Shown in pieces: positions 12,439-28,174 of a DNA stretch of 64,000 nucleotides (positions are counted from its first letter, which is position 1; each line of letters starts with the position of its first letter). This stretch comes from a virus. The notes under the pieces were generated by a model, which had not been told where the DNA came from, made no database searches, and saw only the letters and a list, made by a program, of their open reading frames with translations. The position numbers and the translations under genes were made by a program. The stretch is from the UHGV virus genome UHGV-1455077. One strand, given 5' to 3'.

Positions 12439-12524
12439 GCAGAGTTATACCGTAGGAGTAGCGGGACAGACTGTAAATCTGTTGCCTTTTGGCTCGGGTG
12501 GTGCGACTCCATCACTCTGCACCA
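12439..12524 (+). tRNA. tRNA-Tyr (GTA), type II
   Basis: Acceptor GCAGAGT/ACTCTGC; anticodon stem ACAGA/TCTGT; loop CTGTAAA; long variable arm; T-arm GGTGG-TGCGACT-CCATC; CCA encoded. Confidence 0.7.
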
Positions 12525-12534
12525 TTATTTTAAT

Positions 12535-12610
12535 GGCACTCTAGCAACCACGGTTGATGCGTCTGTCTGAAGAACAGAATAACTCGGTTCGACTCCGAGG
12601 GGTGCCACCA
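12535..12610 (+). tRNA. tRNA-Phe (GAA)
   Basis: Acceptor GGCACTC/GGGTGCC (one G.U pair); T-arm CTCGG-TTCGACT-CCGAG; anticodon loop CTGAAGA; CCA encoded. Confidence 0.6.
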
Positions 12611-12618
12611 ATTTTATT

Positions 12619-12698
12619 CGGGTAGTTGGGGAGTTTGGTTACCCCGCTTGCTTTGGGAGCAAGAGAACTCGCAGGTTCGAATCCTGCCTACCCGACCA
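12619..12698 (+). tRNA. tRNA-Pro (TGG)
   Basis: Acceptor CGGGTAG/CTACCCG; D-stem GGGG/CCCC; anticodon stem CTTGC/GCAAG; loop TTTGGGA; T-arm GCAGG-TTCGAAT-CCTGC. Confidence 0.7.
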
Positions 12699-12782
12699 TT
12701 TTTAATAAATTAAATGTTCCAATAGTTTCTAACTAGCTAGTAGAATAAAGGATAATAACCTTTTTGGAACGCCGAGTTTCTT

Positions 12783-12860
12783 GGGCCAGTAGTTCAGTTA
12801 GGGAGAACGCCTGCTTTGCAAGCAGGATGTCGTGGGTTCGATTCCCACCTGTGTCCACCA
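12783..12860 (+). tRNA. tRNA-Ala (TGC)-like with imperfect acceptor stem (possible pseudogene)
   Basis: Body closely resembles bacterial tRNA-Ala (AGTTCAGTTAGGGAGAACGCCTGCTTTGCAAGCAGG...GTGGGTTCGATTCCCAC), but 5' GGGCCAG pairs poorly with 3' CTGTGTCC. Confidence 0.4.
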
Positions 12861-13146
12861 ATTTTTAAAAAGATTTGTGATAGGTGAAAACTATCATAAA
12901 AATGGGTAAATGCATACCGTTAGTCACAAGCATTCGGAGTCAGCCGCTTCGTTAGATAAGGGTATCGCCGTTTGAGATTTTAAGCGTTATTAATAAATCT
13001 CACCAGTTAGGTAGACAACTCCTGATTTGACTAATCCAGAACATTAGGTGAAGATGTTTTTAATATATATTGAAAAGAGAAGCCGAGCGTCACTCGCTCT
13101 AAAGGAGTAATTGTAAATCGCTCACCAATTTATTTAAGTTTAAAAA

Positions 13147-13491
13147 ATGATAGAATTAAGAAATTGTAAAAAACACGGTTTAACAGAATTTTCATATCAT
13201 AAATCTGGTAATAGATGGAGATGTAAAAAATGTATGGTTGAAGCTGTTAAATTAAGAAGGAAAAAAATTAAAGAAAAAGCTGTCGAATATAAAGGTGGAA
13301 AATGCGAAATCTGTGGATATAATAAATGTATAGATGCATTAGAATTTCATCATTTAAATCCAAAAGAAAAAGATTTTGGAATTGGAGAAAAAGGTTATAC
13401 TCGCAGTTGGATAAAAATTCAAGAAGAACTTGATAAATGTATTATGGTGTGTGCAAATTGCCATAGAGAAATACATAATAAAGATACGTAA
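13147..13491 (+). CDS. HNH homing endonuclease with zinc-binding motifs
   Basis: CKKC...CEICGY...EFHHLNP...CANCHREIH; sits inside the tRNA cluster. Confidence 0.85.
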   Translation: MIELRNCKKHGLTEFSYHKSGNRWRCKKCMVEAVKLRRKKIKEKAVEYKGGKCEICGYNKCIDALEFHHLNPKEKDFGIGEKGYTRSWIKIQEELDKCIMVCANCHREIHNKDT

Positions 13492-13498
13492 TTTTTAT

Positions 13499-13575
13499 TC
13501 TGACGTAGCTCAGTTGGTTAGAGCGTTCGCCTGTTAAGCGAAGGGTCATAGGTTCAAGTCCTATCGTCAGAGCCA
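13499..13575 (+). tRNA. tRNA-Asn (GTT)
   Basis: Acceptor TCTGACG/CGTCAGA; D GCTC/GAGC; anticodon stem TTCGC/GCGAA; loop CTGTTAA; T-arm ATAGG-TTCAAGT-CCTAT; G73 then CCA. Confidence 0.8.
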
Positions 13576-13770
13576 ATATTTAATAAAAAATTTGTATGAA
13601 AGCTAGTGAGTAATACAGATAGTTTAACCCATCTGTACTTCAACAGGGTTCTTGCCATAGAAATAAATGGTCGTTGGATAGAAAATGTCAATGTTATGAA
13701 AAGGAACATTCAAAGTTTTAGTTTTTGAGTGGTAGTTACTAAATTAACAAATAAACTACCATACTTTTAT

Positions 13771-13846
13771 GGTTCGGTGACAGAACGATTAATGTACCCG
13801 TCTGCAAAACGGTGTTTAGTGGGTTTGACTCCCACCCGAATCTCCA
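13771..13846 (+). tRNA. tRNA-Cys (GCA), atypical D-arm
   Basis: Acceptor GGTTCGG/CCGAATC; anticodon stem CCGT/ACGG with loop CTGCAAA; T-arm GTGGG-TTTGACT-CCCAC; T73 then CCA. Confidence 0.5.
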
Positions 13847-13871
13847 TTATTGTTTTTTCAAAATTTTTAAG

Positions 13872-14010
13872 AATGGTGAGAAATTGATTTACATAGACTG
13901 GAAATCCGTGTGTAGAAAGTTCGATTCTTTCCCCATCGACCATTTAACGGTGGGTAGCTCATTGGTAGAGCAACGTAAAATGATAATCAATTGTTATGTT
14001 CCTTCTTAAT
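13872..14010 (+). ncRNA. structured tRNA-like RNA unit A (permuted)
   Basis: Order along the strand: aatggtgagaaattgatttacatag leader; T-arm GAAAG-TTCGATT-CTTTC; acceptor 3' strand CCCATCG-A-CCA; 5-nt spacer; acceptor 5' strand CGGTGGG; D-arm GCTC-ATTGGTA-GAGC. The unit is closed by AATTGATT (13882-13889) pairing with AATCAATT (13985-13992). Confidence 0.55.
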
Positions 14011-14029
14011 TTTAAAAGTTTTGGTAGTT

Positions 14030-14067
14030 GGAAGTTAAGCTTTTGGGGCAGGAGCAACTTAACTTCC
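14030..14067 (+). ncRNA. strong 10-bp hairpin of unknown role
   Basis: GGAAGTTAAG ... CTTAACTTCC with an 18-nt loop. Confidence 0.3.
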
Positions 14068-14483
14068 ATCTATTGATGCGTGTCCTGATTTAATTAATTA
14101 CCTTCTCGTGGTTCAGGATGTAAGTAAGAATTGCAGTTTTTGACATAAGACAATTCTGAAACTAAAGATTAATATTAAAATGATTTAATTGAAGTATAGT
14201 AAATTAAATAAGTTGATTAAATAAGTGAGCAAGATAGAATCAACTAAAGGTAATAATATGCAGATTATATGCCGAACTACTAACGCTTAAGGTAGATGTA
14301 GGAAATAACCTCGGTAGGGCAATTTAATTGTTAATCTCTTAGAAGTCCTAAAAAAATAAACCGTTTTAAAAAACTGCGTTAAATTAAAATTTTGAAATTG
14401 TTGTTCTCCTTTCATTGTTTTTCATACAACAAGAGTAAAAATATTCTTAGTATCGGGAGAGGTAATATCTTATCTCTCTCTTT

Positions 14484-14663
14484 TTATAAAAATGCTGGCA
14501 ATATTGGTTCGAATCCAATATGTATATCTTATCCTAAAAATTACTATTATAGTATTAGATTTAAATAGTAATGATATGTCAAATTTAATAAGAACGTGTT
14601 ATTGAATTATATACATTAGTTTAATGGTAGAACCCCAGCATTTCTATAAGAAGATTTTTATGG
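14484..14663 (+). ncRNA. permuted tRNA-like element
   Basis: The 3' half (GCTGG, variable loop, ATTGG-TTCGAAT-CCAAT, ATGTATA-T; 14494-14527) lies about 80 nt upstream of the 5' half (TATACAT-TA-GTTT-AATGGTA-GAAC-C-CCAGC; 14610-14639). Acceptor 7/7 and anticodon-stem 5/5 are complementary across the two halves. Outer closing stem ATAAAAAT/ATTTTTAT. Confidence 0.55.
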
Positions 14664-14735
14664 GTGTATAAGTCAACGGTTAGACTAACAGCCTTTTAAG
14701 CTGTAGATTCGGGTTCGATTCCTTTATAATCAATA
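14658..14735 (+). tRNA. tRNA-Lys (TTT)-like with degenerate 3' end (possible pseudogene)
   Basis: Acceptor 5' GGGTGTA; D AGTC/GACT; anticodon stem ACAGC/GCTGT; loop CTTTTAA. The T-arm is truncated (CGGG-TTCGATT-CC) and there is no matching acceptor 3' strand. Confidence 0.35.
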
Positions 14736-15219
14736 ATGTATAAGAAAAATAACAAATTTCTTTCTTGATAATTAGGTAATGAAATTAATGCCTAATTATG
14801 ACAAGTATTTAACAAAATTTTCTGACTCTAATCAAAGAATTAGTGATTGATAGTTTAAGAATTATCTGTATACGTGAATGACACCCTTTATCAACGTTTG
14901 CATACATAACTGCATAAATCAAGATGGGTTAGGTGGTCGTTTATCCGTTTCACCTTTCATATGATAAACAAAACGAAAAACGGATTGCATTTTTTATAAT
15001 ATTCAAAATGGGTATTAGATAAGATATTGGTAGCTAGATAACCCAATATATGATAAAAACCATTATTGATAAGGTTTAAGATTTCGACCTTTAACCCAAT
15101 GGAAATCCAGTTTATCTATTGTACTTGGTTAACAATAGCGTAGAATTGGTCATTCTCAAAAAGGTACGTAAGCCTTTTTATATTAAATAAATATCTTATA
15201 TAATTTATGAGGTATTAAA

Positions 15220-15642
15220 ATGAAATTAATTGACATATTAGCATTATTTAAAGCTATAAAAAATACTGCTAAAAAATATCATTGGAAAACTGTTGGCACA
15301 ACATTTATGTCTGACCATTTATTATTTGATAGAATTTATGATGATATTGATGATGACCAAATTGATACAATTGTTGAACAATATTATATGGGTCTTGGAA
15401 GAAAAGATATTGATGATTTAGATAATTTAATTGCATTATCTGCTCAATATGAAGGACAGTCTTTTACTGCTTCTTCTGAAAATTTATTAATGATGTATCA
15501 AGAATTAGCAAGAATGATGAATACATTTTTAGTAAATGTTGAAAAATTAAATTTATTAAGAGGTATAAATTCTGAATTAGATAATATTGCATCAACAATT
15601 ACTCAATTATATGGTTTAGTAACTGCAAGATTAATTCAGTAA
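15220..15642 (+). CDS. hypothetical protein
   Basis: 140-aa ORF with RBS tgaggtattaaaATG. Confidence 0.5.
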   Translation: MKLIDILALFKAIKNTAKKYHWKTVGTTFMSDHLLFDRIYDDIDDDQIDTIVEQYYMGLGRKDIDDLDNLIALSAQYEGQSFTASSENLLMMYQELARMMNTFLVNVEKLNLLRGINSELDNIASTITQLYGLVTARLIQ

Positions 15643-15673
15643 TTTATAAATTTAATATTATAAACATTTAAAT

Positions 15674-15750
15674 GACCCCATCGTCTAAATGGTTAGGATA
15701 CCACCCTTTCAAGGTGAAGATTACGGGTTCAAATCCCGTTGGGGTCGCCA
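15674..15750 (+). tRNA. tRNA-Glu (TTC)
   Basis: Acceptor GACCCCA/TGGGGTC; close to bacterial tRNA-Glu (TCGTCTAAATGGTTAGGATACCACCCTTTCAAGGTG); T-arm ACGGG-TTCAAAT-CCCGT; G73 then CCA. Confidence 0.8.
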
Positions 15751-15978
15751 ATTTTGGTTGCTATCGGAAATCAAGTGCGAATTTATGATATGATATATCG
15801 GATAAATCATATGGAAAAATGGTAACTTGTGGTACGCCAAACTTAATATGTACCGATAATGTATTAAGTTAAAAATAGCGTTTTAATATTCAATTTGTCC
15901 TTGCCTTTACTTTATAAAGGACTTACAGGCGAGGGGGTGGTCTGGAGTTTAAATAGAGGAAAGTCCCCCAACATTTTT

Positions 15979-16052
15979 GGTGTATTAGTTTAATGGTAAA
16001 ACTCCCGACTGTCTATCGGAAATCAAGGGTTCGATTCCCTTATACACCGCCA
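15979..16052 (+). tRNA. tRNA-Asp (GTC)
   Basis: Acceptor GGTGTAT/ATACACC; loop CTGTCTA; T-arm AAGGG-TTCGATT-CCCTT; G73 then CCA. Confidence 0.75.
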
Positions 16053-16107
16053 TTTTTTATTTTATGGGAATATTATCATTCGATATTATATTTTTATCTA
16101 TCAAATA

Positions 16108-16320
16108 GTGATAAATCAACAGCTTAAGATTAGGACACTTAATAAATGAAACAATGTAATTTTTGTGTGTAGTAAAATTTATTGGTAGTAATTTATTAAT
16201 ATATGGAAAATCTAATGAATCATTAATGTAGAAATACACAACTTTAATGATAGTGAAAAATAATTGTCAATGGTATTTCAAACAATTGTTTGATTTGATA
16301 TATAACCACGATATAATTAT
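16108..16320 (+). ncRNA. two further ATAGTGA-leader units (H at 16108, I at 16250), reduced versions of the structured RNA family
   Basis: aatagtgataaatcaac... and gatagtgaaaaataattg ... caattgtttg. Unit I has the closing stem AATAATTG/CAATTGTT with one G.U pair. Confidence 0.35.
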
Positions 16321-16377
16321 ATAATCAAGGTTTTACCTTGGTATTCCCCACCAAATTTATTAGAAGGATTTTTAATA

Positions 16378-16704
16378 ATGAAATATAAAAAGAAATATAT
16401 TGTAGTTGGTGCATACAAGATGAAAGATAATACAATTAATTATTCTTTTTATTATATGAATGAATGCTTTTTAAATACTTTTGCAACAACTTATTCATTA
16501 AATGAAGCTAAAGAAATTGTTAAACAGCTTTATAAAAATGTTAAAAAAGTTAATAAGCTAAAGAAAAATCGAAAAAGATATACATATTTCATTGTTAAAG
16601 CACATACATCAAAAACAAAATTATCTAATGGAAAATATTTATATATTAATAGAGATATACTTGATGAATTTAGTTCATATTGTATTAAATGTGAAATTAA
16701 ATAA
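16378..16704 (+). CDS. hypothetical basic protein
   Basis: 108-aa ORF with RBS agaaggatttttaataATG. Confidence 0.45.
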   Translation: MKYKKKYIVVGAYKMKDNTINYSFYYMNECFLNTFATTYSLNEAKEIVKQLYKNVKKVNKLKKNRKRYTYFIVKAHTSKTKLSNGKYLYINRDILDEFSSYCIKCEIK

Positions 16705-17021
16705 AAATGAGATATATGCCTAATGTTTTCGGTAAAAAATCAAGAAAACAAATGCCTAAATGGTCAAGACATATATCAATAGTCTGTGGTACCAAATTCC
16801 GTAAGGTTCAGCGGGAACTCCTGTATTTATACTTTCCTGCTGGTAAAAAGTTCAGTCATCGAACATAGAATGACCAAACCAGCGATAAAGGTGGAAAGCC
16901 TTTAACAATATATGTGTAGATATGGCGAAAGTTGGTAAAAGCTCCGAGTGATATTGGTTTTAGGTTGTTTGAATTTTGAAGGTTAAAATTCAATTCCTTT
17001 TTCTATGTATATAATTAATTT

Positions 17022-17097
17022 GGGTGTGTAACTTAATTGGTAGAGAAACTGACTCTTAATCAGTATGATGAGGGTTCGAGTCCCTCTGCACCCACCA
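17022..17097 (+). tRNA. tRNA-Lys (CTT)
   Basis: Acceptor GGGTGTG/TGCACCC; anticodon stem ACTGA/TCAGT; loop CTCTTAA; T-arm GAGGG-TTCGAGT-CCCTC; A73 then CCA. Confidence 0.75.
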
Positions 17098-17113
17098 ATA
17101 TGTAAATTTAATT

Positions 17114-17189
17114 GCACCCATAGGCTAATTGGACAAACCCAAAGTCTTCTAAACTTTTATTACAGGTTCGAGTCCTGTTGGGTGTGCCA
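17114..17189 (+). tRNA. tRNA-Arg (TCT)
   Basis: Acceptor GCACCCA/TGGGTGT; anticodon stem AAAGT/ACTTT; loop CTTCTAA; T-arm ACAGG-TTCGAGT-CCTGT; G73 then CCA. Confidence 0.7.
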
Positions 17190-17199
17190 TTTATAAAAA

Positions 17200-17337
17200 A
17201 TGATGAAACGGTGTGGCGGTGTACACGTCTGAAAGTAATAGACCTAGACTTTTAGTTTGAAAGTGAAAGCTAAACAAAGGTATTACCGTTAGAGGAAGTA
17301 AGAAGTCATTGGTTCAACTCCAATTTTCATCACAAAT
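17200..17337 (+). ncRNA. unusually long (~137 nt) tRNA-like element
   Basis: Perfect 7-bp acceptor pairing TGATGAA/TTCATCA flanks a T-arm (CATTGG-TTCAACT-CCAATT). No encoded CCA. The body is too long for a canonical tRNA. Confidence 0.35.
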
Positions 17338-17413
17338 GCTCGGTTAGTTCAGTTGGAAGAACACCGCTTTTACACAGCGGGGGTCGGCAGTTCGAACCTG
17401 TCACCGAGTACCA
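17338..17413 (+). tRNA. tRNA-Val (TAC)
   Basis: Acceptor GCTCGGT/ACCGAGT; D GTTC/GAAC; anticodon stem CCGCT/AGCGG; loop TTTACAC; T-arm GGCAG-TTCGAAC-CTGTC; A73 then CCA. Confidence 0.8.
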
Positions 17414-17422
17414 AAAAATATC

Positions 17423-17451
17423 TTGACAATAAATAAAATAAATTATATAAT
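17423..17451 (+). promoter_or_regulatory. consensus sigma70 promoter (TTGACA-17-TATAAT)
   Basis: tcttgacaataaataaaataaattatataat, immediately upstream of tRNA-Gln. Confidence 0.65.
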
Positions 17452-17461
17452 AAAGTTATAT

Positions 17462-17535
17462 TGGAAAGTCATCTAAGGGTAGGATAGCGGACTTTGACTC
17501 CGTTCATACTGGTTCGAATCCAGTCTTTCCAGCCA
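17462..17535 (+). tRNA. tRNA-Gln (TTG)
   Basis: Acceptor TGGAAAG/CTTTCCA; anticodon stem GCGGA/TCCGT; loop CTTTGAC; T-arm ACTGG-TTCGAAT-CCAGT; G73 then CCA. Confidence 0.7.
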
Positions 17536-17819
17536 TTTTTTAACTGGGGTTATGACTGTTATTCCCCATTCAGGTAAATGATACAGCTATTGTTATGAAG
17601 TAACACGTTGAGGAATACTATCGTGAAAAAGTATTGGTTTGTTGGTTATTTGTTAGATATGTCAAAGTTTTGGAATTCCCAAAAACCTGAAATCAACAGG
17701 GTATAATAAAACATCCTTGAGTTATATTAAGTTTGTCTTAAAGCATTTAATATAAACATTAAAGTTTTATTCGTGAATACTGAAACAATGTTAAGTACGT
17801 TAATCTTAACAATGTTAAT

Positions 17820-17911
17820 GGAATGTTACCCAAGTCTGGTGAAGGGGACTGTTTGCTAAACAGTTAGGAGCAGTAATGTTCGCAGAGGTTCAAATCCTCT
17901 ACATTCCGCCA
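17820..17911 (+). tRNA. tRNA-Ser (GCT), type II
   Basis: Acceptor GGAATGT/ACATTCC; anticodon stem ACTGT/ACAGT; loop TTGCTAA; long variable arm; T-arm AGAGG-TTCAAAT-CCTCT; G73 then CCA. Confidence 0.75.
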
Positions 17912-17941
17912 TTTTGAAAAATAATTTTTCAAAAAAAGTTC

Positions 17942-17970
17942 TTGACAATATAAATTAAATATATTATATT
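17942..17970 (+). promoter_or_regulatory. sigma70-like promoter
   Basis: aaaaagttcttgacaatataaattaaatatattatatt. Confidence 0.55.
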
Positions 17971-18374
17971 AAGTTCATAAGGAGTTACCATTAGTCCTTA
18001 AATCACAATCATAATGGCGTTAGAATATCACGAGACGATATTTGGTTTGTAGTTATCCAGAACTATAATGTCACAATACGGACATTTCGTAAATTTAAAA
18101 ACTGTATTGCGTGGCTGATTACCCATACCATTACGACAAGATGGTTAAAAAATTTAGGTTAAAATGTGATTCCTATAAATCAAAAAAGACATTCTTTTAC
18201 TATTTTAGAGTTAGAAAATAGCGTTCATAATTAGAGTGAAATTATCGGTGAATTTGATATTACATCGTGATAAAAAATATTGAAGGAAGGAAAACCGTGT
18301 TGAAACCTTATTTAATCATTGTTATAAATGATTCGTGGTGATTCAATAACTATTACGTGAATATAGTTTTTAAT

Positions 18375-18452
18375 AGGCTCGTGGTGTTAATGGTTGGCAC
18401 GTTCGCCTGATAAGCGAGAGGTTTGTGAGTTCGAATCTCACCGAGCCTACCA
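18375..18452 (+). tRNA. tRNA-Ile (GAT)
   Basis: Acceptor AGGCTCG/CGAGCCT; anticodon stem TTCGC/GCGAG; loop CTGATAA; T-arm GTGAG-TTCGAAT-CTCAC; A73 then CCA. Confidence 0.75.
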
Positions 18453-18487
18453 AATTAAAATTAATTTTTTGTGGGAGTATAAAATAA

Positions 18488-18700
18488 ATGCCAATGGAAA
18501 AGAAAGTTCTTACACAGGAAGAAAAAGAACTTAAAAAGAAAGAACAAGAATTTAATAAACATATGAATCAAGTATGGAAGCTAAGACCATATAAAATTAA
18601 TGGAATTTCTAAGAATGTTGGTAAAGCTCCAAAATGTAATACAAAAGTTAAAACTGAAAGACCAGTTGAAATGGTAAATCAGAAAAAGAAAAAGAAGTAA
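18488..18700 (+). CDS. small Lys-rich hypothetical protein
   Basis: 70-aa ORF with RBS gggagtataaaataaATG. Confidence 0.4.
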   Translation: MPMEKKVLTQEEKELKKKEQEFNKHMNQVWKLRPYKINGISKNVGKAPKCNTKVKTERPVEMVNQKKKKK

Positions 18701-18841
18701 TTAAAAAATATTTTTAATCGAAATTGAGTAAATCTTGAATATTTTATATTTGCAAGATAAATGCGATAGAGTAGCGAGAATCGAACGCTTGTAACAAATG
18801 TTCGGCTGTTAGAGTTCAGTATAAAAACTCATTTTTCTTAT

Positions 18842-18921
18842 TCTCTGGTAGCTAAACTGGTTGTAGCGGCGGTCTTATAAACCGTGTCTTTATGTGAGTT
18901 CAAGTCTCATCCAGAGAACCA
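18842..18921 (+). tRNA. tRNA with anticodon TAT (Ile, reads AUA)
   Basis: Acceptor TCTCTGG/CCAGAGA; D GCTA/TAGC; anticodon stem GCGGT/ACCGT; loop CTTATAA; T-arm GTGAG-TTCAAGT-CTCAT; A73 then CCA. Confidence 0.6.
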
Positions 18922-19319
18922 TTTTAAAAAATTTTTCAGAAATATATAAAATGGAACAAATGCTAGATAGTTCAATTCTATCAATCTTGTTAAAGATAAA
19001 GGACGGTATTTGAAAAGGTTTGAAGCCCATTATATTACTGAAATTTGGTTCAGACAATATCCATACAGCCGTATAACGTGTGGTGAGCCAATTAATTTAT
19101 GGGTCGCTCCCAATTAACGAATGGGTCTGATGACTTTTATAATTTTTCAATAAGAAAAAGTGTTGCAACAACCATTGATATAAAATCGTTTGCTAACAAG
19201 TTCGTGTATATCATATATGGTTAATAATGTTAGAGGAATAATTTGATATTTTGACTATGTAGAAAATATCCGATAGATTGGATAATCTTCATAAATCATT
19301 CGTTAAGTGATTATTTTAA

Positions 19320-19394
19320 TGCGGAATAGAGCAGAGGTAGCTTAACTGGCTCATAACCAGGAGGTCGGGCGGTTCGAATCCCCCTTCCGCAACA
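19320..19394 (+). tRNA. tRNA-Met (CAT), elongator-like; 3' end reads ACA rather than CCA
   Basis: Acceptor TGCGGAA/TTCCGCA (1:72 paired); D GAGC/GCTT; loop CTCATAA; body similar to bacterial Met tRNAs. Confidence 0.65.
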
Positions 19395-19497
19395 TCTAAC
19401 AAAAGCAAAACCTTTACGTGGTGTTAGATATAAGTAATTCGATTTGAATGAAACCAATTTGCTTAATTATTGAAAAATAGATATTTAAGGTTCAATA

Positions 19498-20163
19498 ATG
19501 TATTACCTAATTTATAAAATAACTAATAATGTAAATAATAAAATCTATATTGGAAAACATCAAACGGAAAATAAAGATGATGATTATATGGGTTCTGGAA
19601 AAATAATAAAAAGAGCTATTGAAAAATATGGTATAGATAAATTTACAAAAGAAATATTATATGAATGTAATTCATTAGAAGAAATGAATGAAAAAGAAGC
19701 AGAAATTGTTGATGAAGAATTTGTTGTTCGTTTAGATACATATAATATTAAATTAGGTGGTCAAGGTGGATGGGATTATGTCCATAAATATACTGATTGG
19801 AATGGATTTAAATATATAAATTCACAAAAGTTAAATAATAAATCGAATCAGTATAAAATATCTGCTGAAAAACTTAAAAATGATGAAAAATATGCAAAAG
19901 AATTTTCTTTAAAAATTTCTAATGGATTAAAATTATATTACCAATTACATAATAATCCATTTAAAGGGAAAAAACATACAATTGAATCAAAAATAAAAAT
20001 TGGTAAAGCAAATGCTATTAAACAAGCTGGTGAAGGAAATTCCAATTATGGAAAATGTTGGATTTATAATGAAGAATTAAAAGAAAATAAATCTATTAAA
20101 AAAGAAAATTTACAATCTTGGTTAGAGAAAGGTTGGAAAAAAGGGAGAAAAATGAAATTTTAA
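19498..20163 (+). CDS. GIY-YIG homing endonuclease
   Basis: N-terminus YYLIYKITNNVNNKIYIGKH...YMGSG matches the GIY-YIG motif. Embedded in the tRNA cluster. Confidence 0.8.
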   Translation: MYYLIYKITNNVNNKIYIGKHQTENKDDDYMGSGKIIKRAIEKYGIDKFTKEILYECNSLEEMNEKEAEIVDEEFVVRLDTYNIKLGGQGGWDYVHKYTDWNGFKYINSQKLNNKSNQYKISAEKLKNDEKYAKEFSLKISNGLKLYYQLHNNPFKGKKHTIESKIKIGKANAIKQAGEGNSNYGKCWIYNEELKENKSIKKENLQSWLEKGWKKGRKMKF

Positions 20164-20294
20164 ATTATTTATATAATTTAATTTTTTACTGGTAGGTACG
20201 AAGATAGCTCAAATACCTCGTTAAACTAAATAGTCGTGCTATCCGCAAACCTTTAGGAAGTAAATGGCGTTATAAGTAACTTCCTGTTTATAAT

Positions 20295-20369
20295 GGCAAT
20301 GTAGTGAAAAGGTTATCACGACTGACTCATATTCAGTAATTTCAAGTTCGATTCTTGACATTGCTACCA
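20295..20369 (+). tRNA. tRNA with anticodon CAT (Met, or Ile2 if lysidinylated)
   Basis: Acceptor GGCAATG/CATTGCT (G1.U72); D GTGA/TCAC; anticodon stem ACTGA/TCAGT; loop CTCATAT; T-arm TCAAG-TTCGATT-CTTGA; A73 then CCA. Confidence 0.65.
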
Positions 20370-20399
20370 TTCATTATTAACTTGTGGGATATTAATTTA

Positions 20400-21563
20400 A
20401 TGACAAATTACATTATAAATAATAATATCGTCAGAATTTTTGGCGAAGATGAAATCAATATTAAACCAGAAATTCCATTAGGAACATATTTGGTTAAAGA
20501 AAATGAATTAACAGGTGAATTGTTTTTAGAAAGAACAGCAGATTTTGTAAAGCCTGAAAAAATATATGGAGAATGTGAATTCCAATCTGAACGAATTATT
20601 AAAACATTTAAAGACAGACCTAATAATACTGGAGTTCTTTTAAATGGTGCAAAAGGTTCAGGAAAAACATTTTTAACTAAGTATATTTCCTATAAGCTTT
20701 TAAAAGATAATTATCCAACAATAATTATTAATGATATATTTAGTCCAACAAAGTTATCTTTATTAATTCAAACAATTAGTGAACCTTGTGTCATTATTTT
20801 TGATGAATTTGAAAAAATTTATCAATCAAATAAAAAAGATGATTTGCAAAACCCACAGAATGGTTTACTTTCATTGCTTGATGGTTTATTTCAAACTAAA
20901 AAGCTATTCATCTTTACTTGTAATGATGATAGTAATATTTCAGATTTGATGAAGAATAGACCTGGTAGAATTTTTTATAAATTGGAATTTAAAGGAATTA
21001 CTGAAAAAACAATTGAAGAATATTGTGAAGAAAAATTAAATAATAAATCATATATTTCTCAAATTTTTAGTATTCGTAAAATGATTAAAGATTTTACCTT
21101 TGATATTTTACAAGCAATTGTTGAAGAAGTTAATCGTTATAATGAAACTCCTTTAGATGTTGTTAAAATGCTTAATGTAACTCCAGAATCTTTATATGCA
21201 AAATATACTGTATCAATTAAGCCATTAAAGAATCAACAAATTGTAAAATTTGAAAAATCTTTATGGGTAAATCCATTATCTTCAGAAGAAGAATCAGTAT
21301 GGATTTATAGAACTAAAACATCAAATGCAGATGATAATAAATATGTTGTTGAAGACGAGGATATTAAAATTTGTGAGCTTAGTTGTGAAACTGATGATGA
21401 TGAAGATAATAATGTTAAAACAGTTACTGATTATTTTCCAGTATCATTGCTTACAATGGTATCATCTAACAAAAATACTTATGTGTATCAGAATGAAGAA
21501 TATCAGGTTACTTTAACTAAAAAGATTATTGATACTGATGATATGTGGAAGTATGCATTTTAA
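20400..21563 (+). CDS. AAA+ family ATPase (start moved to MTNYIINN; the track start at 20355 overlaps the tRNA)
   Basis: Walker A GAKGSGKT and Walker B IIFDEFE. Confidence 0.7.
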   Translation: MTNYIINNNIVRIFGEDEINIKPEIPLGTYLVKENELTGELFLERTADFVKPEKIYGECEFQSERIIKTFKDRPNNTGVLLNGAKGSGKTFLTKYISYKLLKDNYPTIIINDIFSPTKLSLLIQTISEPCVIIFDEFEKIYQSNKKDDLQNPQNGLLSLLDGLFQTKKLFIFTCNDDSNISDLMKNRPGRIFYKLEFKGITEKTIEEYCEEKLNNKSYISQIFSIRKMIKDFTFDILQAIVEEVNRYNETPLDVVKMLNVTPESLYAKYTVSIKPLKNQQIVKFEKSLWVNPLSSEEESVWIYRTKTSNADDNKYVVEDEDIKICELSCETDDDEDNNVKTVTDYFPVSLLTMVSSNKNTYVYQNEEYQVTLTKKIIDTDDMWKYAF

Positions 21564-21859
21564 AAAATTATTGACATATAAAAAATATTATGTTAATTGT
21601 TATAACAAAAGGGAAAATAAAAAACGCCCCTCTGTTAGAAATATATGAGTAGAAATAACAAGTCGTTAAGAAGATTCGCCTTATCTAACAAGGTTAAAGA
21701 GTTTTTTCCTAAAGATGATTTAGGTTTGATGATAAATCAGTAAAAAATATATTGACATATGTTAATTATTATGATATATTTAATTATATTTTAATTTTAA
21801 GTAATATATTAAAATCATTTAATAATTGGTTGGCAAGACCAATAGGATGCCTTTTTAAG

Positions 21860-22330
21860 GCAATGAAAGTAAAATCTTTCTTTTAATATATGAAGATAAA
21901 TTATGTCGTGAATGATTTAGTCGGAGAGATAAGCGACTAAGATAAAATAAAAAAATCTCAAATTCCATAGACGTATGGACGGCATAATAAATTAAATTGT
22001 TGTAACTCAAACAATGGGTAGCCTGCCCATAAGAGTATGCTGGATAATCTGAAAAGATTTGAAGGTAGTTGTGAGTAATACGAATCATAAGGTTGAAATA
22101 GCCACGGTTGGCTAACCGTGAGTGACGTAAGAACCAGACAAATCGTACAGATGAATAGGTCTGATGGCTGTATCTGGTTGGGAGTAGTCATTCTCCCCAT
22201 CCATTAAGCAAAGGAGTAATTAACCTTTGTGGGTGTGACTGAATAATGTGTCGTATGAGGGGCTTGTTGGTAGTCAGGAGTCCAACCAATAATTTAATTT
22301 TAACAGTTTGTGGCAGTCGTTCTGTTTAAA
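21860..22330 (+). ncRNA. GC-elevated structured noncoding region, candidate large ncRNA or ribozyme
   Basis: About 450 nt with no credible ORF and locally GC-rich paired segments (gggtagcctgccc..., ccacggttggctaaccgtg..., gggagtagtcattctcccc). Follows two TTGACA promoters at 21571 and 21752. Confidence 0.3.
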
Positions 22331-22353
22331 AACTCTGCCTTTTTAAACAAACA

Positions 22354-22455
22354 GATAGTGATTATTAGATTTACATAGTTCGATTCTATATTTTTTCATA
22401 TAAAAAGGAAAAATGCCAAAAGGGTGGCGTTTACAATCTAATGAATTTTCTTCTG
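22354..22455 (+). ncRNA. structured RNA unit B (ATAGTGA leader, reduced core with T-loop)
   Basis: gatagtgattattagatttacatag + TTCGATT ...; closing stem ATTAGATT/AATCTAAT. Confidence 0.45.
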
Positions 22456-22472
22456 TTTATTTAAAAATTTTC

Positions 22473-22545
22473 GATAGTGAGTATAAGATTTACATAGACC
22501 AGACTTTTAATCTGACATTTACAAAATCTTATAGATTGTTCTTCG
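22473..22545 (+). ncRNA. structured RNA unit C
   Basis: gatagtgagtataagatttacatag + hairpin CAGA-CTTTTAA-TCTG; closing stem TATAAGATT/AATCTTATA. Confidence 0.45.
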
Positions 22546-22564
22546 AATTAATACTTTTTTGTGA

Positions 22565-22662
22565 ATAGTGAGATATTAGGTTTACATAGCTAAAGTGGTT
22601 AAAGCATTTGACTTGAAATCAAAGTATTGTAGGTTCGATTCCTACTGTAATTTTAACTTAAT
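22565..22662 (+). ncRNA. structured RNA unit D, containing a complete class-I tRNA-like fold with anticodon TGA (22580-22653)
   Basis: Leader aatagtgagatattaggtttacatag. tRNA-like: acceptor GTTTACA/TGTAATT (one U-U), D GCTA/AAGC, anticodon stem TTTGA/TCAAA, loop CTTGAAA, T-arm GTAGG-TTCGATT-CCTAC. Closing stem TATTAGG/CTTAATA. Confidence 0.5.
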
Positions 22663-22727
22663 AAAATGTTCTTTCACAAATTTAATTATTTGACACTTTA
22701 TTATAAATGTTATATAAATAATAATAT

Positions 22728-22813
22728 GGAAGGTAACTGGCTGGATGAAGACACCGACTTGAAATCGGCTGGGCGTAACTGCTTTGGGGGTTCGAGTCCC
22801 TCACCTTCCGCCA
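22728..22813 (+). tRNA. tRNA-Ser (TGA), type II
   Basis: Acceptor GGAAGGT/ACCTTCC; loop CTTGAAA; long variable arm; T-arm GGGGG-TTCGAGT-CCCTC; G73 then CCA. Confidence 0.7.
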
Positions 22814-22820
22814 TTTTTAT

Positions 22821-23514
22821 TTGGTATTGTGGGATATGATAAAAGTAAGTAGAAAAGAATACGAAAATAATCCAGAAAAATATATTATATATTGTACAAA
22901 ATGTAAAAAACCAATAATATTTAAAGATTATAGACATTATTGTGATAGAGTTAATAAAATTAATATTAGACATCATCAACCATTTTGTTCAAAAGAATGC
23001 TCATATGAATATCATAGATTATTTACAAATAAAGGAATTTGTGATTTTTGTGGTAAAGAGTTTATTAGACAAAATGTTTATGGGGATAAAAGACAAAAAC
23101 ATACATTTTGTTCACAAAAATGTTCTGCAAAATATTTTAATAGTCATAAAAAATTTGGTTATAGAAAATCAAAAGCTGAAGAATATATTGTAAGTCAATT
23201 AAAAAAAAGATTATCCGTATTTAAATATTAAAGAAAATGATGTATCAACAATAGGTAAAGAACTTGATATTTATTTACCAGATTTAAATTTAGCATTTGA
23301 AATTAATGGTATAGTTCATTATAAACCTATATATGGAAAAGAAAAGTTAAATAAAATACAAAATAATGATTTTTTTAAAAAAGAATTATGTGAAAGTAAA
23401 AATATTTTATTGACAATAATTAATATAAGTGATATAAAAGTATTTAAAGAGAATTTAATTATAAATAAATATAATTACATTAAAGAAATTATAAGTAATA
23501 CAATGCCACGATAG
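22821..23514 (+). pseudogene. frameshifted homing-endonuclease-like gene: Zn-ribbon N-terminal ORF (22821..23231) plus endonuclease-like continuation in another frame (~23233..23514)
   Basis: N-terminal ORF has CxxC pairs (CTKCKK, CSKECSYEYH, CDFCGKEF, CSQKCS). The downstream frame encodes KELDIYLPDLNLAFEINGIVHYKP..., a Vsr/DUF559-type endonuclease core motif, with no ATG of its own. Confidence 0.5.
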
Positions 23515-23580
23515 CTCAACTGGCAGAGCAACCGATTTGTAATCGGTAGGTTGGGGATTCGACTTCCTCTCGTGGCACCA
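23505..23580 (+). tRNA. tRNA-Thr (TGT)
   Basis: Acceptor GCCACGA/TCGTGGC; D GCTC/GAGC; anticodon stem ACCGA/TCGGT; loop TTTGTAA; T-arm GGGGA-TTCGACT-TCCTC; A73 then CCA. Confidence 0.8.
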
Positions 23581-23711
23581 GATTTTAATAAGCTCCCCCG
23601 CTAAAGATACTTTGTGTATACAGCGAATATGGGTCAAAGTTTAAACTTTGCATTAAATTATAATAATTGTACAATAAAAAATTATGTGAGCATTTTTTAA
23701 TTTTGTATGGT

Positions 23712-23790
23712 AATAGTGACTTAAAGAATTACATAGATAACTGATTATTGTCTGCCAAAACAAGAAATTCTTTAAAATTATTCTTTACCA
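23712..23790 (+). ncRNA. structured RNA unit E
   Basis: taatagtgacttaaagaattacatag...; closing stem TTAAAGAATT/AATTCTTTAA (10 bp). Confidence 0.45.
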
Positions 23791-23805
23791 TTTAAACTAT
23801 TTTAG

Positions 23806-23945
23806 CAATAGTGAGAAAAGGATTTACATAGGTTTGTAACCCGTTGGTAATTGGTTCGAATCCAATCAAGTAATTGAAATATATTATTTGTAGCTCATTG
23901 GTAGAGCAACGATAAAAAATAATCCTTTATTATGTTCTTTGCTAA
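23806..23945 (+). ncRNA. structured tRNA-like RNA unit F (permuted, same architecture as unit A)
   Basis: Leader caatagtgagaaaaggatttacatag; T-arm ATTGG-TTCGAAT-CCAAT; acceptor 3' CAAGTAA. A few nt downstream, acceptor 5' TTATTTG (7/7 complementary) and D-arm GCTC-ATTGGTA-GAGC. Closing stem AAAGGATT/AATCCTTT. Confidence 0.55.
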
Positions 23946-23953
23946 CAAATATT

Positions 23954-24062
23954 TGGTGATAGTGATTAATTAGGTTTACATAGCTTAATGGTTAGAGCAT
24001 TGATTTAACACATCAAACGTTACAGGTTCAACTCCTGTTGTAATTAATACCTAATTTACTAT
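23954..24062 (+). ncRNA. structured RNA unit G, containing a complete class-I tRNA-like fold (23974-24046) with anticodon loop TTAACAC
   Basis: Leader tgatagtgattaattaggtttacatag; acceptor GTTTACA/TGTAATT; D GCTT/GAGC; anticodon stem TTGAT/ATCAA; T-arm ACAGG-TTCAACT-CCTGT; closing stem TAATTAGG/CCTAATT. Confidence 0.5.
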
Positions 24063-24082
24063 TCTTCACCAGTTCAATTTTG

Positions 24083-24115
24083 CACCCAAGAACATATGTT
24101 CTTGGGTATTTTTTT
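24083..24115 (+). terminator. rho-independent terminator closing the tRNA/ncRNA island
   Basis: cacccaagaacatatgttcttgggtattttttt. Confidence 0.8.
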
Positions 24116-24125: not shown

Positions 24126-24155
24126 TTGACAAATCATCTATAAATGAAGTATATT
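24126..24155 (+). promoter_or_regulatory. sigma70-like promoter
   Basis: ttgacaaatcatctataaatgaagtatatt. Confidence 0.5.
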
Positions 24156-26047: not shown

Positions 26048-26084
26048 TTAAATAAATATAATAAACAAACCCGATAGGCTTCTT

Positions 26085-28171: not shown

Positions 28172-28174
28172 AGA

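Follow-up and report, generated by a model that had tools for sequence, protein, structure and literature searches.

The tRNA gene array and its interruptions

The DNA analysed (the window) is a stretch of 64,000 nucleotides from a phage genome, and all of its 22 tRNA genes are carried on the plus strand, as are the other genes, RNAs and tRNA-like pieces described below. With default settings, ARAGORN reports 21 tRNAs, every one of them on this strand, between positions 12535 and 28252, and relaxed settings yield three more (Tyr, Cys and a type-II Ser). The Rfam tRNA model gives 23 matches at its gathering score, and in the rest of the 64 kb no credible tRNA match is found with either ARAGORN or this model. 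Twenty of the 22 genes are located in the interval 12439-24050, for which the original prediction had claimed about 20 canonical tRNAs. The 22 tRNA-model matches in this interval consist of 18 sound genes, which are exactly those of the predicted list, two decayed copies and the heads of two Y-RNA-like units; rather than rejecting most of the tRNAs, ARAGORN and Rfam accept them.

The array is opened by a type-II tRNA-Tyr (GTA; 12439-12524; CCA encoded, T-loop TGCGACT; Rfam tRNA 29.8 bits, relaxed ARAGORN), which is 88% identical to the annotated tRNA-Tyr of Enterococcus phages. It is followed by genes that, unless stated otherwise, are found by both ARAGORN and Rfam, namely tRNA-Phe (GAA; 12535-12610), tRNA-Pro (TGG; 12619-12698), tRNA-Asn (GTT; 13499-13575; Rfam 73.6 bits), tRNA-Cys (GCA; 13771-13846; Rfam 46.8 bits, relaxed ARAGORN), tRNA-Glu (TTC; 15674-15750), tRNA-Asp (GTC; 15979-16052), tRNA-Lys (CTT; 17022-17097), tRNA-Arg (TCT; 17114-17189), tRNA-Val (TAC; 17338-17413), tRNA-Gln (TTG; 17462-17535), the type-II tRNA-Ser (GCT; 17820-17911), tRNA-Ile (GAT; 18375-18452) and tRNA-Ile (TAT; 18842-18921), two tRNAs with a CAT anticodon, of which one (19320-19393) is of the elongator Met or Ile2 type and does not encode CCA while the second is found at 20295-20369, a true type-II tRNA-Ser (TGA; 22728-22813; CCA encoded; relaxed ARAGORN, Rfam tRNA-Sec-like match of 30.7 bits) with an orthologue at 6779-6861 of the related locus L003, and tRNA-Thr (TGT; 23505-23580). 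Beyond the interval, tRNA-His (GTG; 28085-28172), whose long form (88 nt, variable region of 15 nt) is kept in L130, L131 and L006, precedes tRNA-Leu (TAG; 28176-28252; ARAGORN, Rfam). The terminal CCA, predicted for most of the tRNAs, is encoded in 20 of the 22 genes.

The four protein genes predicted between the tRNAs are confirmed by family matches. The HNH homing endonuclease gene (13147-13491; phrog_2255, E = 3.4e-33; Pfam HNH, 20.4 bits) has no match at that position in L130 or L131. The GIY-YIG homing endonuclease gene (19498-20163; phrog_314, E = 3.8e-45) is part of a mobile cassette, of which 65-70% identical copies, sharing an upstream segment with it, are found beside tRNA-His in L001 and L006, and between the Met tRNAs of L130 it is missing. 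In the frameshifted homing-endonuclease-like gene (22821-23504), the zinc-finger N-terminal part and the C-terminal part are encoded in different frames, the latter in the +1 frame past an A8 run at about 23199-23206; the fused protein matches homing-endonuclease families over both halves (phrog_559 and phrog_9084), and the gene is absent between the Ser and Thr tRNAs of L003. Presence, absence and position of the endonucleases vary among the relatives and, in comparison with loci that lack them at the respective sites, all three genes are insertions; they have invaded the tRNA array and rearranged it. The AAA+ ATPase gene (20401-21563; Pfam AAA, E = 6.8e-12; phrog_2376, E = 1.5e-86) is syntenic in L004 and L130; its listed TTG start at 20355 overlaps a tRNA, and the ATG at 20401 is the likely start. 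Promoters had likewise been predicted among the tRNAs, and five near-consensus sigma-70 sites are present on the plus strand, albeit with a total of promoter-like sites that is not above chance. A consensus promoter is located between tRNA-Val and tRNA-Gln (17423-17451, plus strand).

The tRNA set had also been proposed to compensate for an A/T-rich codon usage. The phage ORFs indeed strongly favour A/T-ending codons (AAA for 91% of Lys, GAA for 96% of Glu, AAT for 93% of Asn, AGA for 65% of Arg and CAA for 91% of Gln), and by simple wobble the set reads 73% of 14,732 codons. The fit breaks down for Leu: for UUA, which makes up 73% of the Leu codons, the window provides no tRNA, whereas the rare CUA (2%) has one. 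With nearly one tRNA per codon box, the set is thus no selected subset; the codon argument agrees with the proposal without being discriminating.

Decayed copies and other structured RNAs

Both degenerate copies that had been predicted are decayed. The tRNA-Ala (TGC)-like gene (12783-12860, with the tRNA call at 12783-12856; ARAGORN, Rfam 55.5 bits) retains G3:U70 and ACCA, but is probably decaying, since its acceptor stem contains one extra base and two mismatches; an orthologue was not found in the loci of the relatives. In the tRNA-Lys (TTT) at 14661-14733, as identified by comparison with the copies of the relatives, identity to these copies amounts to 97% over the first 62 nt, while other sequence has taken the place of the 3' part of the T-stem, the acceptor strand and CCA; L003, L130 and L133 still have the canonical 3' acceptor strand with its CCA. 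A predicted 137-nt tRNA-like element (17200-17337) is present, with an acceptor-like stem of 7-8 bp, a T-arm, a D-like hairpin, an aberrant loop at the anticodon position and an insert of about 60 nt, and without CCA; with z = -1.3, its fold does not stand out, and the element is conserved to 93% in L130 and L131. The supposed duplication of a 3' fragment of tRNA-Asp at 15758-15780 is reduced to an exact 15-nt copy (15759-15773) that derives from the middle of this tRNA, not from its 3' end. A further permuted tRNA-like element (P3, 14478-14655; fold z = -6.1) is closed by a 9-bp stem and comprises a T-arm at 14503, an acceptor-like stem of 7 bp carrying a long insert, and a segment resembling a D-arm. 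The UAGUGA element described below is missing from P3, which gives no match in the relatives, i.e., it is specific to the window.

Downstream of a plus-strand promoter at 21752-21780, a large structured RNA (21985-22345) with a conserved core of about 300 nt was recognized. Of its 60 pairs, 43 show compensatory changes, and the family recurs in the tRNA islands of other large phages; among the Rfam families, none was assigned, with just sub-threshold manA matches.

Y-RNA-like units and the Ro60 gene

Seven units of one common architecture are found at 13867-14009, 22349-22679 and 23707-24072. In each of them, an outer stem is followed by a conserved UAGUGA/URUUCU bulged element, a middle stem, a UUACA helix and a variable, tRNA-derived head; the outer and the middle helix, of 7 bp each, are built from the unit's own 5' and 3' ends. 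In the bulged element, 5' U-A/G-G-U-G-A faces 5' U-R-U-U-C-U/C. The heads of U1 (13867-14009; fold, covariation) and U6 (23802-23945; fold, covariation) are circularly permuted tRNA mimics devoid of an anticodon loop, made up in U1 of T-arm, closed acceptor hairpin and D-arm; both units align over the whole Rfam YrlA model (42.5 bits, E = 1.3e-6, and 35.4 bits, E = 1.5e-4, respectively), at scores far below the gathering score of 69. U2, U3 and U5, supported by fold and covariation, have hairpin heads, two of the three with anticodon-loop-like 7-nt loops: U2 (22349-22458) carries a T-arm-like hairpin and two further hairpins, U3 (22468-22552) a short stem with the loop CUUUUAA, which is identical to the anticodon loop of tRNA-Lys(UUU), and U5 (23707-23791) a hairpin with the loop CUGAUUA. 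The U3 stem covaries in the orthologue at 6512-6596 of L003. Complete cloverleaves with an exposed anticodon arm and without CCA form the heads of U4 (22559-22679), called as tRNA-Ser-TGA at 22579-22654 (ARAGORN; Rfam 61.2 bits), and U7 (23953-24072), called as tRNA-Val-AAC at 23974-24046 (ARAGORN; Rfam 59.3 bits), both likewise supported by fold and covariation; in U4, a long variable arm is missing and the acceptor helix runs on into the middle stem of the unit. An intrinsic terminator with a 10-bp stem and a T run (24084-24115, plus strand) ends the transcription unit containing U5-U7, and the next promoter is located at 24126-24155. The original picture of tRNAs and pseudogenes is therefore incomplete, since some of the tRNA-like sequence, two confident tRNA calls among it, is accounted for by these units.

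In an alignment of the stems of 14 units, 97.2% of the cells are paired versus 42-60% in slid controls, a measure in which the alignment, made by us from the same sequences, favours structure, which does not apply to compensatory changes. The latter are seen in 13 of the 18 stem pairs, with up to four pair types per position; both stems covary strongly, and an A-U pair within the conserved element is replaced by G-C in U1 (UGGUGA/UGUUCC). On four of the five measures, none of 500 shuffles reached the observed value. Among 235 viral loci with a loose match (about 1 Mb in the second set alone), none contained a unit by the full definition, which was matched twice in reversed-sequence controls.

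The gene at 24761-26047, 0.7 kb downstream of U7, encodes a Ro60/Rsr orthologue with a TROVE domain (Pfam TROVE, E = 2.5e-17) and a vWA domain with a DVSGS MIDAS motif. It belongs to phrog_850 (E = 1.7e-28), has more than 5,000 homologues and matches the Thermus phage Ro60 structures 9KOP and 9L5Y over residues 14-427 (E = 1.9e-13). The original prediction did not mention this gene. Y RNAs are usually encoded within 2 kb of the Ro60 gene; four of the seven units are 2-11 kb away from it. The same units in the same order are found in L003, L004 and L130-132, where, in L004, one unit directly abuts the Ro60 gene; the heads are kept with compensatory changes in the orthologues, in genomes whose Ro60 is 59-86% identical. 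No units were found within 10 kb of Ro60 in L001, L006 and L007 (Ro60 76-78% identical), so that co-occurrence is established for those loci alone in which Ro60 neighbours the tRNA island. At least five units are present within 600 nt upstream of the Ro60 gene of L133; their element, (C/A)GGCGAG, approaches the published Ro60-contact motif GNCGAAN0-1G (PMC4201824), whereas the UAGUGA of the window is no literal match to GNCGAA. A phage Ro60 has been described to bind two upstream Y-like RNAs via a motif in the bulge between two stems (PMC12135203).

Competing explanations and the proposed role

It appears unlikely that all aberrant tRNA-like pieces, the units included, are functionless decaying duplicates or scars of homing-endonuclease recombination. 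Decay is real at this locus, as seen from the lost 3' end of tRNA-Lys (TTT) and the damaged acceptor stem of the Ala copy; the 15-nt Asp fragment, the window-specific P3 and the 137-nt element with its unexceptional fold would all fit, and the array is visibly rearranged in comparison to L130 and L003. However, the seven units hold their two stems through many compensatory substitutions despite differing sequences, which decay would not yield; they are conserved in position and type where Ro60 is just 59-86% identical, and they share an invariant bulged element, with a Ro60 gene alongside. To consider the units as DNA-level repeats, such as miniature inverted-repeat elements, recombination sites or terminator cassettes, is hardly plausible. 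They are clustered, with terminal inverted repeats and a terminator after U7, but these repeats vary from copy to copy and covary, which implies selection for RNA pairing and not the conserved ends of a transposable element; furthermore, tolerance of G·U pairs is confined to the plus strand, every copy is co-oriented with the tRNAs, and the heads carry tRNA tertiary-interaction motifs.

Decoding tRNAs, with the flanking stems as processing signals and release by RNase P/Z and CCA addition, are a quite unlikely identity of the cloverleaf units and their orthologues. The Rfam tRNA scores of 59-61 bits, the regular anticodon loops (7 nt, U33 and A37 present) and the covarying anticodon and T stems would agree with it, as would the YrlA of M. 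smegmatis, an RNase P substrate to which CCA is added (PMC4201824). On the other hand, G·U is found at position 1-72 and U·U at 2-71, CCA is missing in contrast to 20 of the 22 true tRNAs, and identical flanking stems also surround heads of a non-tRNA type. The main SerRS identity element is missing from a Ser-UGA tRNA that lacks the long variable arm; this is the case for U4, with the true type-II tRNA-Ser(UGA) only 75 nt downstream, and at the same syntenic position the anticodon varies among UGA, AAC and GUU.

The window is thus still aptly described as a large repertoire of phage tRNAs with homing endonucleases in between and two decayed copies, and the best reading of the locus, with a probability of roughly 70%, is a tRNA island combined with a divergent multi-copy family of phage Y RNAs for Ro60. 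What is observed here is the gene content, the architecture and covariation of the RNAs, their conservation in relatives and the linkage to Ro60; the seven copies of this Y-RNA-like family very probably partner the adjacent Ro60, to which they would bind. The RNA-gene island of this phage of about 217 kb combines two systems: a tRNA array of 22 genes, 20 of them intact, serving 17 amino acids plus the decayed Ala copy and predicted to be read rightward from several strong sigma-70-type promoters, and the Y-RNA-like units interspersed in it, which would be released by cleavage of the polycistronic tRNA transcripts. The phage Ro60 would bind the units at the conserved bulged element. Complexes of Ro60, Y RNA and PNPase are known; the tRNA-like heads may tether Ro60 to tRNA-recognizing factors of the host or the phage, for example PNPase, and RNA turnover or repair would thereby be modulated during infection.

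Y-RNA-like units and the Ro60-like gene

The ORF 24761-26047 (+) encodes a 428-amino acid protein with the domain order of Ro60/Rsr, which is a TROVE domain (63.6 bits against a Pfam cut-off of 23) followed by a vWA domain, for which the profile matches are weak and the MIDAS motif DVSGS (DxSxS) was read in the translation. Its sole relatives of solved structure are entries of the Ro60 of Thermus phage phiLo (9KOP, 9L5Y), matched over the full length with an E value of 1.9e-13. The gene is 100% identical to a copy on a 216,815-bp IMG/VR contig, further relatives with 86%, 72-78%, and 59-60% protein identity are located on metagenomic contigs of about 26 kb to about 390 kb, and a megablast search with a 17-kb query returned tRNA-sized matches only and no close relative among cultured phages. 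An uncultured phage of large (jumbo) size is, therefore, the source of the window, which is AT-rich (GC 22-36% in 2-kb windows) and whose genes lie, up to about 55 kb, almost exclusively on the + strand. Upstream of this gene, seven structured units are found, all on the + strand, namely, U1 (13867-14009), U2 to U4 (within 22349-22679), and U5 to U7 (within 23707-24072), ending 10.8 kb, 2.1-2.4 kb, and 0.7-1.0 kb, respectively, before position 24761; as is characteristic of YrlA, they are thus near a Ro60/TROVE gene on the same strand. They would probably (at roughly 70%) represent a multicopy, divergent Y-RNA-like family for the adjacent Ro60 gene. The original prediction had described 12439-24050 as a tRNA repertoire with homing endonucleases and tRNA pseudogenes; the tRNA island with its homing endonucleases stands, while the Y-RNA-like family, including two confident tRNA calls, had been overlooked.

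In a permissive Rfam scan, two full-length but sub-threshold YrlA matches were obtained (13890-14003 and 23817-23931), and reading of the sequence revealed the recurrent signature ATAGTGA-N-GATTTACATAG with the 3' partner TRTTCT. From 5' to 3', a unit is composed of a 7-bp outer stem, the element U(A/G)GUGA, a 7-bp middle stem, UUACAUAG, a head, the 3' strand of the middle stem, URUUC(U/C), and the 3' strand of the outer stem; this layout is recovered in the minimum-free-energy folds of all copies. When the stems of 14 units from three genomes were aligned in a fixed register, 97% of the cells were paired versus 42-60% with the partner strand slid, a figure that is inflated since the register was derived from these same sequences. 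Unaffected by this bias are the compensatory changes in 13 of the 18 pairs; in the outer and middle stems, a position may show up to four pair types. U1 has G-C in place of an A-U pair of the conserved element, which argues for a short helix made up of A-U, G-C, a bulged U, G·U, and A-U. The unit definition is specific: applied in full, it gave two matches in reversed controls and, among the matches listed, none in 235 loosely matching viral loci. Loose IMG/VR scans for the 5' signature each returned at least about 120 loci, almost all of them single chance matches, and filtering with the full definition left the window's own lineage only, again among the matches listed. Allowing one mismatch, the 9-mer TTTACATAG occurs 40 times in the window versus 43 expected and shows no enrichment; exact copies and the whole-unit architecture alone are informative.

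The heads are of several types. U1 and U6 have tRNA mimics in circularly permuted order, following the YrlA design and comprising a T-arm, a closed acceptor-like hairpin, and a D-arm, and these elements covary, also in the orthologues, which have the same permuted module. U2 carries a T-arm-like hairpin. In U3 and U5, the head is a short stem with a 7-nt loop, CUUUUAA and CUGAUUA, respectively; the loop of U3 is that of the tRNA-Lys-UUU anticodon arm, and the two loops match, exactly or nearly, the anticodon loops of tRNA-Lys-UUU and tRNA-Ile-GAU. U4 and U7, finally, display complete cloverleaves, called tRNA-Ser-TGA (22579-22654) and tRNA-Val-AAC (23974-24046) at 61.2 and 59.3 bits with the Rfam tRNA model and called by ARAGORN as well.

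On this basis, U4 and U7 might be taken for decoding tRNAs, and the cloverleaf with its T-loop, the GG of the D-loop, and the 7-nt anticodon loop would be in accordance with such a role. A 7-bp acceptor stem with a free 3' discriminator and CCA is missing; pair 1-72 is G·U, 2-71 is U·U, CCA is not encoded, and the helix runs directly into the middle and outer stems of the unit. Bacterial tRNA-Ser requires a long variable arm, and the variable region of the "Ser" head of U4 measures 5 nt; a true 86-nt tRNA-Ser(TGA) follows 75 nt downstream, at 22728-22813. At the matching syntenic units of relatives the loops read UGA, GUU, AAC, or GAU, and the anticodon stem covaries at five of five pairs. A MITE-like origin of the repeated units was also considered and rejected, because their terminal repeats covary instead of being conserved. 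The reading as a Y-RNA-like family is, thus, the preferred one.

For comparison, metagenomic loci of related or large phages (L numbers) were inspected. L003, with a Ro60 of 72% identity, contains one unit each of the permuted, hairpin, and cloverleaf types; tRNA-Ser(UGA) and tRNA-Thr follow the hairpin and cloverleaf units in the same order as in the window. In L004 and L130-L132 (Ro60 identity 86%), six units are present, the last of which stops some 120 nt short of the start codon of Ro60, and at least five units with the element (C/A)GGCGAG are packed within 600 nt upstream of Ro60 in L133 (59% identity, higher GC). No units occur within 10 kb of Ro60 in L001, L006, and L007, the main tRNA islands of which lie elsewhere. 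At the Rfam gathering level, L001, L007, and L008 yielded tRNAs only, and beside the Ro60 gene of seven distant Ro60-encoding phage loci, tRNAs but no YrlA were detected.

Directly after the Ro60 stop codon, a noncoding stretch of about 300 nt (26048-26404, +) can be aligned across the relatives without exception, also where no units are nearby, and a terminator-like hairpin (26360-26399) closes it; the copy of the window has an insertion of about 95 nt and a deletion compared to the others. Net covariation support was not obtained for this stretch (term +0.17), which may be an RNA gene, a 3' UTR, or the leader of the next ORF. With relaxed thresholds only, a possible degenerate Y-like unit (CGGTGA...TTACATCG) was picked up at 18239-18334 (+), in a 460-nt gene-free stretch past the promoter 17942-17970; it may be a false positive. 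The segment 14478-14655 (+) adjoins the decayed tRNA-Lys(UUU), is very stable (z = -6.1) and window-specific, and does not contain the UAGUGA element. It resembles a circularly permuted tRNA, with a T-arm, a 7-bp acceptor-like stem, a D-arm-like segment, and a 9-bp closing stem, and has nested within it, at about 14540-14620, the degenerate unit-like sequence TAGTA..ATTAGATTTAAATAG..ATTTAAT..TGTTAT. The gene-free stretches 14010-14470 and 14734-15219 (+) are 86-92% identical to L130 and L131 (80-87% for other noncoding segments), and the first part of the former is 73% identical to L003. They include several GC-rich hairpins, a terminator-like stem is located at 14455-14480, and in L130 a tRNA-Asn is placed midway in the counterpart of 14734-15219.

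The tRNA island and its inserted genes

ARAGORN and the Rfam tRNA model identified 21 and 23 tRNAs, respectively, which without exception are + strand genes within 12.4-28.3 kb, and relaxed ARAGORN settings added Tyr-GTA, Cys-GCA, and the type-II Ser-TGA. The 18 sound tRNAs listed in the original prediction agree exactly with these calls; His-GTG and Leu-TAG are located 4 kb past the end of the interval it covered. CCA, said to be encoded in most tRNAs, is present in 20 of the 22 true genes. Two copies regarded as degenerate are indeed so: the acceptor stem of Ala-TGC is damaged, and Lys-TTT matches the copies of relatives for 62 nt, after which the canonical T-stem, acceptor strand, and CCA are gone. 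The 137-nt element at 17200-17337 has the acceptor and T-arm features that had led to its description as tRNA-like, its fold being unexceptional; since it folds no better than shuffled sequences (z = -1.3), it is not claimed as a functional RNA. The duplicated fragment of tRNA-Asp, thought to derive from the 3' end, is an exact 15-nt repeat of the middle of the tRNA.

The proposed compensation for an AT-rich codon usage was assessed with 14,732 codons from 56 ORFs. A/T-ending codons are overwhelmingly used and the tRNA set reads 73% by simple wobble; the match is, however, weak evidence, because the set amounts to nearly one tRNA per codon box, and UUA as the commonest Leu codon has no tRNA in the window while the rare CUA has one. 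Gly and Trp tRNAs are likewise missing from the window. Stop-codon usage (49 TAA, 5 TGA, 2 TAG) gives no sign of recoding. A tRNA-SeC(TCA) called at 36743-36819 (+) by relaxed ARAGORN only is probably spurious, because it lies inside the ORF 36635-37171 and both default ARAGORN and gathering-level Rfam are silent. Concerning the promoters placed between the tRNAs, five sites agree with the consensus at 11-12 of 12 positions, and only these are worth citing, since the total of promoter-like sites (115 versus 122 expected) is not above chance; together with a strong terminator at 24084, the five organize the region. The tRNA-His at 28085-28172 (+) measures 88 nt, of which 15 make up a variable region that looks unpaired, and G-1 is encoded. 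L130, L131, and L006 share the long form at 94-99% conservation, and L001 has a normal tRNA-His of 75 nt; Thg1-like enzymes are encoded by relatives.

The HNH, GIY-YIG, and AAA assignments were confirmed by PHROG and Pfam profile matches. The endonuclease gene at 22821 is frameshifted as proposed; its ORF resumes in the +1 frame past an A8 run, and both halves of the fused protein are covered by matches to homing-endonuclease families. All three endonuclease genes are missing at the corresponding sites in L130 or L003 and are, therefore, real insertions; the PHROG family matches and this presence/absence polymorphism among related genomes characterize them as homing endonucleases. In L001 and L006, the GIY-YIG gene and its upstream segment (65-70% identity) are found beside tRNA-His instead of tRNA-Met. 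Dense co-oriented tRNAs, encoded CCA, a codon-usage match, and intervening homing endonucleases are equally features of the tRNA arrays of T4-like, T5-like, mycobacteriophage, and jumbo phages, from which there is no essential difference, and, taken by itself, the array is nothing unusual in a large phage. As a whole, the region combines a phage tRNA island into which homing endonucleases have moved, the probable Y-RNA-like family, and a large, structured, and unclassified RNA.

Several other genes were noted in the window and around Ro60 in the comparison loci. Two genes of the window belong to families with tRNA- or translation-related associations: 10500-10844 (+), 1.6 kb before the tRNA island, codes for a small S4/TyrRS-C-terminal-like RNA-binding protein, and 33527-34090 (+), downstream of the island, for a protein of the YqeY (GatB-like) family (E = 4.5e-38). 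YqeY recurs near Ro60 in L001, L004, and L006. Near Ro60 there are also genes for a Thg1-like tRNA-His guanylyltransferase in L001 (17563-18378) and L007, for a Tpt1/KptA RNA 2'-phosphotransferase in L003 (14307-15005), and for an enzyme of the CCA-adding/poly(A) polymerase family in L008 (1-645), and a TnpB/Cas12f-like gene is situated directly upstream of Ro60 in L007 (8252-9628). A tandem series of seven or eight similarly long ORFs (288-329 amino acids) occupies 47364-54466 (+), and four of them give weak radical-SAM matches (E = 6e-7 to 8e-4; the first alone above the Pfam cut-off).

A large structured RNA of phage tRNA islands

The 780-nt gene-free stretch preceding U2 holds a structured core of about 300 nt (within 21985-22345, +; promoter at 21752-21780), which is conserved even in L003. 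Homologues are present in L003 (6010-6399), L130 (8380-8769), L144 (1136-1525), and L163-L174; a 23-base composite motif retrieved the RNA from 15 viral loci on 13 distinct contigs of 5-282 kb and from two MAG contigs labelled Mycoplasmatota and rumen Bacteroidales. It is nearly always located inside a tRNA island, often just after tRNA-Met, and in two other lineages distant TROVE genes lie within a few kb; membership in one system with the Y-RNA-like units is conceivable. An alignment of 12 lineages supports 60 predicted pairs, of which 43 show compensatory changes (covariation term -16.5 kcal/mol), and the invariant blocks include AGUGACGUAAGAA and GACAAAUCGU.

As to the identity of this RNA, no Rfam family was matched at threshold. 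Group I intron, RNase P RNA, tmRNA, ROOL, and GOLLD were considered and have no Rfam support, and the RNA interrupts no gene. Matches to manA (RF01745) are consistent in four lineages and extend over the whole model length in L173 and L164, yet at 23.5-31.1 bits they are weak and stay far below the gathering score of 55.2; in the literature, manA figures as an element of 5' UTRs in marine cyanophages (PMC2864571) and not as a tRNA-island RNA of gut/rumen-type phages. ROOL and GOLLD are likewise large structured phage RNAs, often near tRNA islands, and GOLLD env-38 is located downstream of a tRNA-Met (PMC12286853). Despite the similar context, their models do not match, either with an 801-nt query at E up to 10 or in six homologue loci. 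The RNA is, thus, a candidate for a new class of tRNA-island RNA in large phages, joining ROOL and GOLLD. We know of no function assigned to either of these two.

Relation to known Y RNA systems

In YrlA and YrlB, which accompany Rsr in Salmonella, Mycobacterium smegmatis, and mycobacteriophages (PMC4201824; bioRxiv 10.1101/312249), several features of the window units are found: location on the same strand near a TROVE-vWA gene, pairing of the 5' and 3' ends in a stem, with a conserved 5' element that is short and rich in purines, an effector module built as a circularly permuted tRNA mimic, as in U1 and U6, and several Y RNAs per genome, simple hairpin types included, those of M. smegmatis deriving from a common precursor. 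The window units differ in carrying UAGUGA instead of GNCGAA, in being seven instead of two to four, and in lying dispersed over a tRNA array, at distances from Ro60 of up to 11 kb; an intact anticodon arm, lacking in YrlA, is displayed by the additional head types. U1 (42.5 bits, E = 1.3e-6) and U6 (35.4 bits, E = 1.5e-4) match the full YrlA model (RF02553, positions 1-114), albeit well below its gathering threshold of 69 bits, because the conserved element, URGUGA opposite URUUCY, has diverged. The motif GNCGAAN0-1G near the 5' end was proposed by Chen et al. 2014 as the Ro60-contact strand of YrlA and YrlB (PMC4201824), and the Ro60 of phiLo needs a CGAA motif in a bulge between two stems (PMC12135203). 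Taken literally, GNCGAAN0-1G is absent from the window units, which have the related purine-rich element U(A/G)GUGA(G/U/C). The (C/A)GGCGAG of L133 is closer to it and to the CGAA of phiLo, which makes UAGUGA a candidate for a diverged version of a known kind of Ro60 site.

Yrn1 of Deinococcus radiodurans has the nonpermuted order of D-like arm, stem-loop in anticodon position, and T-arm between paired ends (PMC4201824), corresponding to the topology of U4 and U7, but is only loosely tRNA-like, whereas U4 and U7 reach 59-61 bits as full tRNAs and the window genome holds both topologies on one stem design. The phiLo system (PMC12135203) shares with the window a phage-encoded Ro60, upstream Y-like RNAs of the stem-bulge-stem type with the contact motif in the bulge, and the lack of a PNPase of its own; it differs by its two simple RNAs, Yrl1 and Yrl2, with a CGAA motif, no described tRNA-like heads, and no tRNA island. 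A phage-encoded Ro60 together with Y-like RNAs has been described in mycobacteriophages, CcrColossus, phage G, phiLo, and some jumbo phages (PMC4201824, PMC12135203, PMC7824862). New in the present phage are the seven copies, their dispersal through a tRNA island, the diverged putative binding element that keeps the units below the Rfam threshold, and the fact that a single stem design carries heads of YrlA topology, near-perfect cloverleaf heads of the opposite, Yrn1-like topology, and plain hairpins resembling an anticodon arm. In L165, the tRNA island of another large phage that also contains the large RNA, sub-threshold YrlA matches covering model positions 23-87 occur at 12632-12708 and 3887-3967 (-), with 38.2 and 37.1 bits, so that tRNA mimics of the permuted kind may have a wider distribution among phage tRNA islands than units of the UAGUGA type.

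Known Y RNAs tether Ro60 to an effector, which is PNPase in Deinococcus, Salmonella, and phiLo, and gate the Ro60 cavity. For the tRNA-like domain of bacterial Y RNAs, the effector is still unknown (bioRxiv 10.1101/312249). Profile and family searches of the 64-kb window found no PNPase, RtcB, or RNA ligase. Beyond a conserved RNA structure next to a Ro60 gene, every step is what we infer, with Ro60 binding deduced from linkage and architecture only. By analogy, the units would most likely be excised from tRNA precursors, the phage Ro60 would bind them at the bulged element, and the tRNA-like heads would engage tRNA-recognizing factors. A modular display is conceivable, though rather unlikely, in which one Ro60-binding stem would present an anticodon arm, a whole cloverleaf, or an anticodon-less elbow, and the Ro60 particle would capture anticodon-recognizing host factors (e.g., anti-phage anticodon nucleases or tRNA-modifying enzymes), thereby protecting the phage tRNA supply encoded around the units.

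U4 and U7 are called as confident Ser-TGA and Val-AAC by standard tools, and units of relatives as Lys, Asn, or Ser; as a result, both censuses of phage tRNAs and analyses of codon compensation will arrive at wrong counts in this clade. With URGUGA opposite URUUCY and a bulged U between, the candidate Ro60 site gains a broader definition at the sequence level, and the natural variant series on one Ro60-type stem, from the anticodon-arm-like hairpin through the cloverleaf to the permuted form without anticodon, is a ready set for pull-down and binding work.
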